Counted from the stretch's first letter, positions 23,215 through 37,375 are shown. The stretch: DNA of 42,988 nucleotides from a virus (IMGVR_UViG_3300045988_149348); one strand, 5' to 3'. Notes: generated by a model from the sequence alone, not told the origin. Translations and numbers: made by a program.

Positions 23215-23290
23215 TGGTGGCCCCTACCGGATTTGAACCGATGACCGTGCGATTATGAGTCGCCTGCTCTAACCACTGAGCTAAGGGGCC
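23215..23290 (-). tRNA. tRNA with CAU anticodon (Met or Ile2/lysidine type)
   Basis: 76-nt cloverleaf folded by hand: 7-bp acceptor stem, GCTC/GAGC D stem, anticodon loop CUCAUAA, T loop TTCAAAT, 3' CCA encoded. The 5' 42 nt match E. coli ileX-type tRNA as recalled. Confidence 0.8.
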
Positions 23291-33264: not shown

Positions 33265-33933
33265 ATGGAGTCTCGACAAATGACTATCTCTGTAGGTATT
33301 TTCAACGGAAAAGGCGGCGTAACCAAATCAACAATTGCCCGTGCTTTAGCAGTTGCTTATGCAAAGGCTGGCTGGAATGTATGCCTGATCGATATGGATG
33401 TGCTTAACGGAACGGTAACGCGTTGGGTACAACGCAGAATGGCCAACAATATCGAACCAGCAATCGCGGCGCAGCCGTGCGGCACACCATCACAAGTCCA
33501 GAAAATCATCGAATCAGAAGTATACGACCTGGTTATCGTTGATGGCGGTGCCTACGCATCTGAATCAGTACCGAAGCTATCTGAATTTCTGGATATGGTT
33601 ATTTTGCCAACCCGATTCTCTACCGATGACCTGGAAACCACCGTTAACACTGCTCACGGCATCGTTAAAAAGGGTGTGCCAATCAAGAAAATTTGCATGG
33701 TGTTTTCCGGCGCGGCTGAAAATGAAGCTGACTATATTGAAGCCCAAGAGTACCTGGCTAATACGCCATACTTTGTTGTCGATAAGTACATTCCCCACAA
33801 GCCAGCTCTGAGCAAAGCTCAGGATAAGGGCTTAAGCCTCATTGAATGCTCATACGTTGCGCCACGCAAAAAGGCAGACGACGTTATTCAGGGGATTATC
33901 AACCAGCTTGAGGCTCTGACTACTGCCGCGTAA
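33265..33933 (+). CDS. ParA-family partition ATPase (small, type Ib-like)
   Basis: 222 aa; deviant Walker A GKGGVTKST near the N-terminus; followed by a small ribbon-helix-helix-like gene; AT-rich repeats upstream. Confidence 0.7.
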   Translation: MESRQMTISVGIFNGKGGVTKSTIARALAVAYAKAGWNVCLIDMDVLNGTVTRWVQRRMANNIEPAIAAQPCGTPSQVQKIIESEVYDLVIVDGGAYASESVPKLSEFLDMVILPTRFSTDDLETTVNTAHGIVKKGVPIKKICMVFSGAAENEADYIEAQEYLANTPYFVVDKYIPHKPALSKAQDKGLSLIECSYVAPRKKADDVIQGIINQLEALTTAA

Positions 33934-33976
33934 TATATAATTATAGTTTTATAGATTTATATAAGAGGGGATACAC

Positions 33977-34225
33977 ATGGCCGCACCATCAAAACCACCA
34001 AAGAAGAACAGCAAAGGCGTACCGCCATCGATCGAACAACCGCAGGTTTTCGACCCGACTGAAACGCCAACCAGAACCAAATCAGGTGGGGCACAAATGG
34101 CGTTTAACGTCGACCCTGAATTTAAACGCGAGTACAAAACGTTCGCCAGCTCAATGGATATGTCATTGAAAGAAGTGCTGACAAAATCTTTTGAGTTACT
34201 CAAGGCTCAATACAACCAGAAGTAA
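33977..34225 (+). CDS. ParG-like ribbon-helix-helix partition/centromere-binding protein
   Basis: 82 aa; basic Pro-rich N-terminal tail and C-terminal RHH-like segment (MAFNVDPEFKREYKTFA...); immediately downstream of the ParA-like gene. Confidence 0.5.
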   Translation: MAAPSKPPKKNSKGVPPSIEQPQVFDPTETPTRTKSGGAQMAFNVDPEFKREYKTFASSMDMSLKEVLTKSFELLKAQYNQK

Positions 34226-34254
34226 GAGAAGGTGACGGCCTCCAGCGCCAACTG

Positions 34255-34437
34255 TTGGCCGTCGCGACACAACAAGGGGAATTTGTTATGTCCGAGCAAC
34301 AATATACACGGTTACTGAAAACTCGTCTAACCGACCTCAAACGGCTGCAAGCTGGTCGCTTATTTGCCCTGCTATCCACCAGGCCAGAATGGGTACGTGA
34401 AGCAGTTCTGAAAGGCTTAATGCGCTCCAGCGTTTAA
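34255..34437 (+). CDS. hypothetical small protein
   Basis: 60-aa ORF; last ORF before the hairpin at 34454..34469. Confidence 0.3.
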   Translation: MAVATQQGEFVMSEQQYTRLLKTRLTDLKRLQAGRLFALLSTRPEWVREAVLKGLMRSSV

Positions 34438-34446
34438 ATTCAACCA

Positions 34447-34469
34447 TAAAAAAGGCCCCCGAAGGGGCC
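34447..34469 (-). terminator. rho-independent terminator (minus-strand orientation)
   Basis: GGCCCC-CGAA-GGGGCC hairpin with an A-run on the plus side, giving a U-run on the minus strand after the small peptide ORF. Confidence 0.55.
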
Positions 34470-34475
34470 TAATCG

Positions 34476-34598
34476 CTACTTGCTGCTAATGTTTATCGTC
34501 ACATTCAGAGCGTTATCAGTAATCTTCCAACCCTCCCCATGTGGCGTAAACAAAGCTCCAGTAACAACGATAAAAATACACATGTAGTATTTTTTCAT
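34476..34598 (-). CDS. small hydrophobic peptide (40 aa), candidate membrane peptide
   Basis: MKKYYMCIFIVVTGALF...; AAGGG 8 nt upstream of ATG 34598; own terminator downstream. Low confidence. Confidence 0.3.
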   Translation of the reverse strand: MKKYYMCIFIVVTGALFTPHGEGWKITDNALNVTINISSK

Positions 34599-34976
34599 TG
34601 TGTGGCCCTTACAGGCCGTTTCACGGCATCCCCACCGACGAAAATGACGCGAGAGCAAGCACGCTGTTTGTGCCTGCGTGGTACGGCAAGTGGATAATCC
34701 TTTCCTGAAAGTCGGTGCCCGGTTGCGAATCGGCGAAAAGGCCCCGCGTAATGTTACACCGCAGCCCCTTCATAATGAAGGGATAAAAATGTATTGTTTT
34801 TCATTAGGTTAAATACACACCACAAAAATCACTCGCTTTTGTGCTCTAATAAACCAAATTTATTTGGACAATTTTATTCAGTTGGGTAAGAATATGGTTG
34901 CTGTTTGTGCTTGCGTGGTTGTATTTATACAACAACGTAATGCTGAAAGGACCGCGAATCCGATCAGCACGAAAGA

Positions 34977-35002
34977 ACCGTCCTCAAAAGGACGGTTTTT
35001 TT
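34977..35002 (+). terminator. rho-independent terminator (plus strand)
   Basis: ACCGTCC-TCAAAA-GGACGGT followed by TTTTTT; overlaps the 3' end of the minus-strand gene 34984..35556. Confidence 0.6.
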
Positions 35003-35556
35003 GTTTCTCCCCCTTCCTTCCCAAATGATTCAAATGTTAATGAGAGTGAATCATTTGATATGTTCGATTTAGCGCCGTTATCGACCCAATTTCTGTATGC
35101 TTCATCACAACAGTACCTTACAGCAGTTGGAGTAACAGGGATGCCGCCCCCAAATGAGAATCCCATTGAGCTAATGCTAACTCTTTCGAATGGCCTATTT
35201 CTCAATGCTTCAAACCCCTTGCTATTAAAGTAACGCAGCATCAGAGGTAAAAGGTTATCCTCGTCCTGACTGATTGTTCCAGGGAAAAAGTAGTAACCAT
35301 AACGGTTAAATTCGGGAATAAGAATTTCTACCAATGACATGAAATTCACTGGAGTAATATTAAGGGCTGTGAAAGCACCAAAAAGGGCGTCAACTGTTAA
35401 TACAGACTGCCCGTTCTCTATCTTTGTCCATGCGTTTGGTGTTTTTCCAGCAGCTTGAGCCAGCACTCCTTGATGCACACCTCTTTCTAGCCTAAGTTCT
35501 TTTATGATCATTAGGTGAATTGTTGAAAAACATGAGTTTTTTGACTGTTCAATCAT
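34984..35556 (-). CDS. HTH_XRE-family DNA-binding protein with uncharacterised C-terminal domain
   Basis: 190 aa; helix-turn-helix VLAQAAGKTPNAWTKIENGQSVLTVD; GGGGA ribosome-binding site 6 nt upstream of ATG 35556. Confidence 0.55.
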   Translation of the reverse strand: MIEQSKNSCFSTIHLMIIKELRLERGVHQGVLAQAAGKTPNAWTKIENGQSVLTVDALFGAFTALNITPVNFMSLVEILIPEFNRYGYYFFPGTISQDEDNLLPLMLRYFNSKGFEALRNRPFERVSISSMGFSFGGGIPVTPTAVRYCCDEAYRNWVDNGAKSNISNDSLSLTFESFGKEGGETKKPSF

Positions 35557-35737: not shown

Positions 35738-35839
35738 TAAATGCGCCATTGGTGGACACTTTCCGAGCCGTAGCAAAATCTACGGTCGGGATTGGAACCC
35801 CGTAGACACAATGGCGCATACCGCGTTAGCGGTTTTTTT
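35738..35839 (+). ncRNA. candidate c4-like antisense regulatory RNA with intrinsic terminator
   Basis: Structured ~100-nt region: GCGCCATTG...CAATGGCGC long-range stem, CCGTAG/CTACGG inner stem, then ACCGC-GTTA-GCGGT plus UUUUUUU terminator (35820..35839). 35789..35817 is complementary in two blocks (CATTGTGTC, GTTCCAA) to 35917..35941 in the downstream leader. Confidence 0.5.
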
Positions 35840-36005
35840 ATGCGTAAAGCACTGCTACACCCAAATTATGGTGGGGCGTGCGGGGGAGTCGTAAGACTCG
35901 CCGGTTCGTCATTGTGTCCGGTAGTTCCAACCCTGCACGTCTCACCACCCAATGATTGGAACCTGACGGTGGTGAGTATCCTTAACCTTTAAGGGAATCA
36001 TCACA

Positions 36006-36197
36006 ATGACAAACCTACCCCATGACTATTACGTCAACCTCGTAAAGATCCTTCTCAAGAAAGCCTCATACGCCGATAAAGTCCGCCTGGCTGAAATCAT
36101 CGAGCGCGAAGCTATGCGCATCGCCAGCAACGATAACGCTGTTTCTGACGCAAAAATCTCCCTCGTAACCAAAGTAGTTATGGGAGGTGCAAAATGA
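36006..36197 (+). CDS. icd-like small ORF, translationally coupled to the antirepressor gene
   Basis: 63-aa ORF whose TGA stop overlaps the ATG of the next gene (ATGA); AAGGG ribosome-binding site lies in a CCTTAA/TTAAGG hairpin. Confidence 0.5.
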   Translation: MTNLPHDYYVNLVKILLKKASYADKVRLAEIIEREAMRIASNDNAVSDAKISLVTKVVMGGAK

Positions 36198-37375
36198 AAA
36201 CGCTTCCGATCGTTAACACCCTACAGCCTATCCTGCATAACCAGATCCCCGTTATCACTACTGAACTACTGGCAAAGCTATACGGCACAGACGTTGATAA
36301 CATCAAAAAAAATTACTCACGTAACGCAACCCGCTTTATTGAAGGAAAGCATTTTTTCAAAGTGGCTGGCGATGAGTTAAAAACTTTGCGAGTGACTTTA
36401 AGTCACTCACAAAATTTGCGACTAGTTTTAAACGAGTCACAAAATGAAGTGCAAATTTCCCCCAAGACTCGCTCTCTCATCCTCTGGACAGAACGCGGGG
36501 CTGCACGTCATGCCAAAATGCTTGAAACTAACCAAGCGTGGGATGTATTCGAACGGCTGGAAGACTGCTATTTCAGCCAGAACGCGCAAACGGCCGCGAC
36601 CGTAACCGTCTCGCCAAACAATGCTCGTGAGGTTGTCGATACGCTCAACGCCAAACCGATGTTTTACATTAAAGTGTGCAACAACGAGCCACTCACAACC
36701 TCAGCCGATGTTGCCCAGGCATTCAGCACCACAAACAATTCCATCGTTATGGCCATCGATGCGCTACGCATTCCTCGCACGGCTGCGGCGCGTCACTTCT
36801 TTAAAGAGCAACGACCGTTGGAAGGAAGCGACCGCGAAATAACAATCTATCGCATGACAAAAGACGGATTTACCTTGCTCATGGAGAGCATCGACGGTCC
36901 AGGCGTGAAAGATATCAAGCTGGCCTACATTGAAGCCTTTAACGCTATCAGCAGCGTGTTAAAAACACAGTACGAGCGTGATCTGGCTAAACGACTGTAC
37001 CAGGAAAAAACGATTATCCGCGCGGCAACAGAGCATAATCGGCTATTAACGGAACCGAACTACAGGAAGGAACTAATCAAGGAGTTTGACAAGGCAACAG
37101 GGAAAACCAAAGCGGCGCTAAATCTGCCAGCAATGACTCAGGAAAATGTGATATCAGCCTTACTTCTTGATCTGCTCAGAAACGCCAGAGCACTTATCAG
37201 CTTTGACGAAAACCTGAATCCTCAGCTCAAGCTACTACCACCGACAGGCAAAGTAGTCGACCAGGCTGATCACAACAGCATACTCAGCGTACTGGATGCA
37301 AACCTGCCAGCCAGGACACTACAGGATCTGATAAAAACATGTGCTGATAAGCTGGCACAGAAAAGCAGACCATAA
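36194..37375 (+). CDS. antirepressor-like protein (ORF6N/KilA-N-like N-domain + Rha-like domain)
   Basis: 393 aa; N-terminal ITTELLAKLYGTDVDNIKKNYSRNATRF (ORF6N-like) and central PLTTSADVAQAFSTTNNSIVMAIDAL (Rha-like), as recalled; GGGAGG ribosome-binding site. Confidence 0.6.
   Translation: MKTLPIVNTLQPILHNQIPVITTELLAKLYGTDVDNIKKNYSRNATRFIEGKHFFKVAGDELKTLRVTLSHSQNLRLVLNESQNEVQISPKTRSLILWTERGAARHAKMLETNQAWDVFERLEDCYFSQNAQTAATVTVSPNNAREVVDTLNAKPMFYIKVCNNEPLTTSADVAQAFSTTNNSIVMAIDALRIPRTAAARHFFKEQRPLEGSDREITIYRMTKDGFTLLMESIDGPGVKDIKLAYIEAFNAISSVLKTQYERDLAKRLYQEKTIIRAATEHNRLLTEPNYRKELIKEFDKATGKTKAALNLPAMTQENVISALLLDLLRNARALISFDENLNPQLKLLPPTGKVVDQADHNSILSVLDANLPARTLQDLIKTCADKLAQKSRP

Follow-up and report, generated by a model that had tools for sequence, protein, structure and literature searches.

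What is encoded in the roughly 500 bp that follow the partition operon of IMGVR_UViG_3300045988_149348, a viral DNA stretch of 42,988 nt that was analyzed over its whole length and is referred to here as the window? The original prediction pointed to a small hydrophobic peptide, a 20-nt direct repeat and a short terminated unit on the plus strand, and read them as a possible type I toxin with an antisense-like sRNA. That reading was right in substance: the region carries a match to the Rfam family RF00126, a plus-strand unit with a TimR-like body, and a peptide collinear with TimP. The locus is very probably a divergent copy of the known enterobacterial timP/TimR (ryfA/ryfB) type I-like toxin-antitoxin pair, carried by a ~48 kb Escherichia phage-plasmid. 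It represents a new mobile-element clade of a system that has already been described and mechanistically dissected, and sequence comparison supports its membership of the timPR family well at the levels of the mRNA, the sRNA and the architecture.

The predicted timP-like mRNA and its peptide

The RF00126 (ryfA/timP) model matched the minus strand at 34746..34448 with 136.6 bits (gathering threshold, 80) from the first to the last model position (1-296 of 296). The name ryfA predates timP, whose mRNA codes for a toxic inner-membrane protein of 38 aa with a Sec-signal-like N-terminus and is repressed by TimR (PMC7667032). The predicted mRNA of the window (34448..34746, minus strand) comprises a 148-nt structured 5'UTR, a 40-codon ORF and a terminator, and its fold has an MFE z-score of -4.84. 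The corresponding Rfam match in Yersinia phage vB_YpM_41 reached 134.6 bits, and E. coli chromosomal loci annotated as timP were ~70% identical to the window. Among 16 related loci, the timP region was 93-100% conserved.

Comparison with homologs pointed to TAACAT (34751..34756, minus strand) as a candidate timP -10 hexamer, which would place the transcription start ~6-8 nt downstream, near 34746-34744. All 14 homologs inspected have a -10-like hexamer (TAATAT, TAAAAT, TACTAT, TACAAT, TATTAT, TATAAT or TATCAT) at a constant distance from position 1 of the Rfam model. No timP promoter was listed by a consensus promoter scan of the window, and the -35 that accompanies TAACAT is weak, so we treat this promoter as a candidate only. 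At the other end, a terminator with a G+C-rich stem (34470-34453) and a T-run was found, as originally predicted; the whole element, stem and U-run (34448..34470, used on the minus strand), was recovered both by a terminator scan and as the 3' hairpin of the Rfam alignment. On the plus strand, the same stem is preceded by an A-tract and lies downstream of a par-side ORF ending at 34437, and it may be used in both directions.

The 40-aa ORF runs from the ATG at 34598 to the TAG at 34478-34476 (minus strand), and its product, MKKYYMCIFIVVTGALFTPHGEGWKITDNALNVTINISSK, has a KK n-region and a hydrophobic core of 14 residues (YYMCIFIVVTGALF), and its C-terminal tail is polar. The proposed ORF at 34476..34598 was thus confirmed together with its own Shine-Dalgarno (SD) sequence, AAGGG (34610..34606), which corresponds to mRNA nt 137-141 and lies 7 nt before the ATG (AUG at nt 149). 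Likewise, no other credible ORF was present between 34440 and 34984, in agreement with the original prediction. A 60-aa ORF with a TTG start (34658..34476) was rejected, as its extension is unconserved and falls within stem-loops SL3 and SL4 of the leader.

The NCBIfam model NF040796 (toxic_TimP) matched the peptide weakly, with 22.2 bits (E=1.2e-4) against a cut-off of 45, and BLASTP found 9 of 19 identical residues (E=2e-5). Nine chromosomal TimPs from Escherichia, Citrobacter, Kluyvera, Pseudocitrobacter and Superficieibacter could be aligned with it end to end at 29-38% identity, with only two one-residue offsets, one at the N-terminus and one at the next-to-last position. The basic N-terminus, Y5, C7, V12, L16, N36 and the terminal K/R were conserved. 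Within the mobile clade, the reading frame is kept, with a pN/pS of 0.25-0.63. From this alignment, we regard the peptide as a probable, divergent TimP member that falls under the curated cut-off. A protein-database search with the 40-aa peptide returned nothing but the identical sequence, with 3 members on 7 contigs that all came from Logan assemblies, and a Pfam scan at E values up to 10, with the Hok/Gef family included, gave no family matches; homology searching at the protein level is therefore a dead end at this length.

The leader fold and the putative divergent sRNA

In Salmonella, the SD of timP is trapped in SL4, translation needs both a 7-bp SL1-SL3 pseudoknot and a pairing between sites 2 and 4, a pairing between sites 1 and 2 locks the inactive form, and TimR disrupts the active fold by binding to SL2 (PMC11228461, PMC13000454). 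To compare the window with this scheme, we aligned 19 leader sequences (7 from mobile elements and 12 chromosomal) and derived an RNAalifold consensus. SL1-SL4 were all recovered, and SL2-SL4 were also present in the single-sequence MFE fold of the window. When the pseudoknot and the site 2-4 pairing were added to the structure, 97.6% of the cells were paired, compared with 36-50% when the partners were slid.

All leader elements lie on the minus strand. SL1 (34699..34741), whose lower stem is 100% paired in the 19 sequences, contains pseudoknot site 1, CACCGAC (34717..34711). It is followed by site 2 (UGCCGU, 34683..34688), whose function as the partner of site 4 in opening the SD stem-loop is taken from PMC13000454. 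The predicted TimR-binding site and SL2 (stem 34677..34655) together occupy 34655..34682 and include the first copy of the repeat; this assignment comes from RNAalifold and the 21-bp helix described below. SL3 (34621..34652) contains pseudoknot site 3, GUCGGUG (34639..34633), which forms the helix with site 1. Site 4 (ACGGCC, 34619..34614) and SL4 (GGCCU-GUAA-GGGCC, 34617..34604), found both by RNAalifold and in the MFE fold, share the segment 34604..34619. SL4 sequesters the SD (34610..34606) and shows a compensatory U-A to C-G change in the RNAalifold consensus.

The SL1-SL3 pseudoknot was a 7-bp helix that was 100% paired in 19/19 sequences. The 7 mobile sequences, and no others, differ at both partners of two of these pairs (U-A to C-G and G-C to A-U), so that CACCGAC pairs with GUCGGUG in the window and CGCUGGC with GCCAGUG in E. 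coli. For site 2-4 (partner, 34619..34614), the window keeps five of six pairs (GCCGU with ACGGC), in which pair 60-133 is G-C and pair 64-129 is U-A; one outer pair was lost in all 7 mobile sequences. The site 1-2 pairing, in a register that we took from the text of PMC13000454, had 5/5 bp in most chromosomal sequences, whereas in 7/7 mobile sequences it had 3/5 non-contiguous bp (34683-34717 in the window), with A-C and U-U mismatches; an alternative register of 4 bp pairs GGCA with UGCC. The interrupted lock may mean that the mRNA is more constitutively active, or the wrong register may have been used.

These leader features also bear on whether the minus-strand RNA is mainly a non-coding sRNA, RyfA, that tunes host stress, biofilm or virulence genes. 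The peptide would then be incidental or non-toxic at native levels, and the plus-strand RNA would merely tune RyfA abundance, as RyfB1 does in Shigella. RyfA is treated as an sRNA for stress resistance and virulence in reports on UPEC, APEC and Shigella (PMC8205139, PMC10664665, PMC13188913, PMC5333039), deletion of timR in Salmonella gave no growth phenotype (PMC7667032), and the window RNA is strongly structured. However, the frame, length and N-terminal pattern of the ORF are preserved across clades at the low pN/pS given above, and the leader keeps every translation-gating element (the SD-sequestering SL4, the pseudoknot and the 2-4 pairing), all of which would be pointless in a non-coding RNA. 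We therefore consider a mainly non-coding role unlikely and favor a translated timP mRNA, which might nonetheless have a dual function.

The two repeat copies, GCTGTTTGTGCCTGCGTGGT at 34663-34682 and GCTGTTTGTGCTTGCGTGGT at 34900-34919, are identical at 19 of 20 positions and lie 237 bp apart, with no dyad symmetry. The first copy starts where it had been predicted, while the start of the second was off by two (34900 rather than 34898). No further copies with up to three mismatches were found in the window, and none of 100 shuffles contained two matches. On the mRNA strand, copy 1 reads ACCACGCAGGCACAAACAGC (nt 65-84) and covers the SL2 loop, the 5' stem arm and 5 nt upstream, whereas copy 2 forms the first 20 nt of the plus-strand unit, that is, its seed. 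The two are complementary as RNAs, and the single difference between the copies yields a G-U pair. When the interaction between the plus-strand unit and the peptide leader was predicted, as had been suggested as a check, a contiguous 21-bp helix with one G-U was obtained. The predicted site (nt 65-84) lies >60 nt upstream of the SD (nt 137-141), as in Salmonella, where ~18 nt in the 5' region of TimR pair with the timP leader at a like distance (>60 nt) before the RBS (PMC7667032).

On the basis of its TimR-homologous body, its fold and the covariation with its target, the plus-strand unit is predicted to be a TimR-like antitoxin sRNA of ~105 nt (34900..35004, plus strand). It consists of the seed GCUGUUUGUGCUUGCGUGGU (34900-34919), a first hairpin, a conserved hairpin (34942-34968) and a terminator (34969-35004). 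The predicted fold (-44.1 kcal/mol, z = -6.84) leaves seed nt 3-9 unpaired, followed by the two hairpins and the terminator. In an alignment of 13 TimR sequences (6 mobile and 7 chromosomal), the hairpin core GCUG..A.G.CCGCGAA.C...C.G.A was invariant and the terminator was present in 13/13. The terminator had been foreseen at 34977..35002; its arms of 16 nt each (34969-34984 and 34989-35004) set the wider bounds, and, as stated originally, it overlaps the 3' end of a convergent gene, here the stop codon of an XRE-family gene (34984-35556). The promoter-like element was also present with its 17-nt spacer and AAGAAT, but its -35 is best read as TGGACA instead of TTGGAC (TGGACA-17-AAGAAT, 34865..34893, plus strand; 9/12 consensus matches). 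Taken alone, this candidate timR promoter is not significant, as 4 such sites were found against 2.3 expected. Across 17 related loci, the -35 was invariant and a -10 was kept despite variable flanks.

All 21 timP homologs examined carried their own SL2-region sequence as an exact repeat of 8-18 nt upstream, on the opposite strand. Measured to the timP +1, this exact repeat lay 164-240 nt upstream in the mobile clade and 85-100 nt upstream in chromosomal loci; in the window, the TimR seed starts ~154 nt upstream. The putative antitoxin is a divergent, trans-encoded sRNA whose seed duplicates its target site, which upholds the proposed antisense-like control through the repeat but not a cis-overlapping arrangement. 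The spacer between the timP and timR promoters (34757-34864) was mosaic and hypervariable, while the units flanking it were 93-100% identical.

The putative sRNA also gave a weak Rfam match to RNAI (RF00106) at 34906-35003 (29.4 bits, E=0.0027), which would suit a ColE1-type replication-control antisense RNA. This score is under the gathering threshold of 47, its best-paired part is the terminator hairpin, and no RNAII or ColE1-type RNA was found at threshold in the window. Since the plus-strand RNA also aligns with TimR homologs via the invariant core, replication control is extremely unlikely. Matches to RNAI, Atu_C8, PhrS and Phe-leader were all under gathering and were treated as by-products of the terminator or of local hairpins.

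Within the phage-plasmid family, seed and site fell into three allelic classes that differ by A-U to G-C double changes at two positions. The site in the timP leader and the TimR seed read ...CACAAACAGC and GCUGUUUGUG... in class A, to which the window belongs, ...CACAAGCGG and CCGCUUGUG... in class B, and ...CACAAGCAGC and GCUGCUUGUG... in class C. In class C plasmids, the spacer between the timP and timR promoters was replaced outright. In 13x13 matrices of TimRs against leader sites, the cognate pair had the best duplex energy in its row for every TimR and the longest helix for every TimR except for one tie (the L043 TimR with the L064 site). The window site formed a 21-bp helix with its cognate sRNA, compared with 10 and 7 bp with the E. 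coli chromosomal TimRs. The different SL2 loop and the shorter helix suggest insulation from the host TimR. However, strict orthogonality was rejected as a firm claim, because the duplex energies are near (-42.4 kcal/mol for the cognate pair and -39.5 kcal/mol with E. coli TimR copy a), a similarity that reflects the conserved SL2 stem. The covarying changes are few, clade-wide events and not many independent ones, and the two DNA repeats could in principle have been homogenized by recombination. The chromosome of E. coli APEC37 carries timP twice in tandem (14-999 of the extracted locus L002), with an IS128 RNA match and a fragment of sseB in between. The SL2 loop and the TimR seed differ from one copy to the other, so seed diversification also occurs between sibling systems of a single chromosome.

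Covariation of the two copies would equally be expected if they were protein-binding DNA sites, such as a partition centromere, an operator or iterons, with the plus-strand unit serving only as a bidirectional terminator for the XRE gene. The position of the repeats just downstream of the ParA operon and the non-significant timR promoter match fit such sites. Nevertheless, there are only two copies, well separated and without dyad symmetry, and their one difference gives a G-U pair in RNA. Moreover, copy 1 falls within the full-length ryfA match of Rfam, where the TimR site has been mapped experimentally, and the sequence after copy 2 is homologous to TimR of chromosomal systems that lack par genes nearby. 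We therefore consider DNA-binding sites very unlikely and retain the timP/TimR pair.

Transcription, toxicity and repression at the window locus are what we infer by analogy, as the mechanism is borrowed from published Salmonella work. There, TimP resides in the inner membrane and is toxic when overexpressed, TimR represses its translation, and the mRNA needs no processing (PMC7667032, PMC11228461). By this model, the minus strand would give a ~300-nt timP mRNA whose 40-codon ORF would encode a small, Sec-signal-like inner-membrane toxin. The leader would fold into SL1-SL4 with the SD trapped in SL4, and translation would need the SL1-SL3 pseudoknot (sites 1-3) together with the site 2-4 pairing that frees the SD. 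A divergent promoter ~154 bp upstream would produce the ~105-nt TimR-like sRNA, and pairing of its 5' 20 nt with the SL2 loop, the 5' stem arm and 5 nt upstream (21 bp, one G-U) would destabilize the active fold, so that timP translation is blocked.

Phage-plasmid setting and possible role

The window represents a phage-plasmid of the myovirus type. Over its first 25 kb, identity is 99.4% to a 48.8 kb E. coli plasmid and 99.1% to Yersinia phage vB_YpM_41; E. coli ATCC 25922 carries a relative of 48.5 kb. Copies of the timPR segment were found on 59-62 plasmids of PLSDB, from Escherichia apart from three Salmonella records and one of Klebsiella, and in 3 Yersinia phages. Among 5,426 complete E. 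coli genomes, it was found at 73 plasmid places; by this count of matches, the plasmid-borne element occurs in ~1% of complete E. coli genomes. A pattern scan added three viral contigs (L019-L021), whose ryfA matches reach 154-174 bits and which each have a seed of their own; their peptides have the common motif P-x-GEGWK-x-(T/S)-x-N-x-LNV-(T/S)-I. Another viral contig (L018) was set aside, as it had no ryfA match and its SL1-pattern match lay inside a coding region. About 30 of the 48 genome-contig matches to the SL1 pattern (TTYCGCCGNNTCGCAANCGGGC) were non-enterobacterial and were treated, unscanned, as chance.

No annotation was found on the timP/timR segment in the ~60 plasmid and 3 phage records examined. 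RefSeq/PGAP names the chromosomal timP (E. coli genome matches H24-H27) and nothing at the plasmid copies (L003-L017), because the peptide, at 22.2 bits, is under the NCBIfam TimP cut-off. The mobile timPR thus exposes a systematic annotation gap at plasmid and phage copies. The papers retrieved on ryfA, timP and TimR, in the portions consulted, concern chromosomal loci; our literature search found no paper linking ryfA or timP to phage-plasmids, and a search for the Yersinia phages found nothing.

The module is flanked on one side by the ParA operon (33265-34437) and on the other by the region with XRE, isrK/C4 and Ant; a CI-like repressor and a small partner protein are also encoded nearby. 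ParA is followed by two small ORFs (33977-34437, plus strand), of which the 82-aa ORF belongs to phrog_6024 and is possibly a centromere-binding partner, and the 60-aa ORF has no family. On the other side, isrK and the C4 antisense RNA matched Rfam above gathering at 35767-35839 and 35864-35952 (plus strand) and are followed by an Ant-like anti-repressor (36194-37375), forming a P1/P7-type immI immunity module beside timPR. isrK/C4 immI RNAs were also present in L019 and L020. In L019, we judged by eye a ParA-like ORF, from its N-terminal sequence, and a HicA/HicB-like pair (465-1155) ~2 kb from the timP variant, so this element may carry two toxin-antitoxin modules. The window also contains a tRNA gene (23218-23290, minus strand; Rfam, 67 bits).

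The location between the ParA partition operon and the immunity region suggests a role in post-segregational killing. By analogy, it is plausible that the module stabilizes the phage-plasmid in this way, given this location and the finding that TimR is less stable than the timP mRNA in Salmonella (PMC7667032). However, Salmonella lacking timR had no growth defect and no persister or P22 phenotype, and timPR mutants showed no phenotype in growth, persistence, biofilm or P22 assays (PMC7667032). Given the unaffected growth of the timR deletion strain, it is not assured that the peptide is toxic at native expression levels or, in turn, that the module kills.

We tentatively propose, as one possibility among several, that the mobile timPR clade serves these phage-plasmids as an addiction (post-segregational killing) module or as a superinfection or abortive-infection module. 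Such a role would be supported by the module's own SL2-loop/seed address, insulating it from the host TimR, and by the clade-specific re-coding of the pseudoknot. In addition, the apparently weakened site 1-2 lock would allow a more constitutive translation of the mRNA and, as a result, make it strictly dependent on a continued supply of TimR. If true, this would be the first clear physiological role for the timPR family and a natural example of specificity diversification by seed/loop co-evolution. The diverged copy in a stability/immunity region makes the physiological role of timPR testable through plasmid retention or phage exclusion. In the mobile clade, the pseudoknot and the TimR seed and site also occur in naturally compensated variants, which provide independent support for the structural-switch model.

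Relation to known toxin-antitoxin systems

The model for the proposed post-segregational killing is hok/sok (parB of plasmid R1), which is likewise a plasmid-borne type I toxin in a stability region and has an unstable antisense RNA. However, the window peptide is outside Hok/Gef in the Pfam scan, Rfam gives ryfA and not a hok/sok RNA, and the window locus lacks an overlapping frame of the mok type. In addition, Sok is an antisense RNA that overlaps its target in cis, and the hok mRNA is activated by 3' processing.

The E. coli type I pairs tisB/istR-1, zorO/orzO, shoB/ohsC and dinQ/agrB are closer in layout. Their antitoxin genes are likewise divergent and non-overlapping, a short duplicated sequence gives trans complementarity to the toxin leader, and a small membrane toxin is combined with a structurally sequestered RBS. 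They have no sequence homology to the window locus, and their toxins lack a signal-sequence-like N-terminus (PMC7667032). Moreover, their mRNAs need nucleolytic processing or standby sites, whereas timP is a purely structural switch (PMC11228461, PMC13000454).

The closest relatives are timP/TimR (ryfA/STnc2070) of Salmonella Typhimurium and E. coli and ryfA1/ryfB1 of Shigella dysenteriae, with which the window locus has the mRNA family RF00126 in common. As in timP/TimR, the ORF has a like position and a length within 38-41 aa, and its product has a putative Sec-signal-like N-terminus. The sRNA is likewise divergent, with a 5' seed complementary to SL2 >60 nt before the RBS and a conserved body and terminator, and the leader has the common SL1-SL4, 7-bp SL1-SL3 pseudoknot and site 2-4 pairing. 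The known timP/TimR occupies the chromosomal sseA-sseB locus, whereas the copies described here reside on a phage-plasmid or phage. RNA identity to E. coli timP is ~70%, but peptide identity is only 29-38%, and the peptide, which is under the NCBIfam cut-off, has a clade-specific P-x-GEGWK-x-(T/S)-x-N-x-LNV-(T/S)-I tail. Finally, the SL2 loop/seed is AAACAGC here and CCCCACA in known timP/TimR, the pseudoknot is altered by two compensatory pairs, and the site 1-2 lock appears weaker than in known timP.
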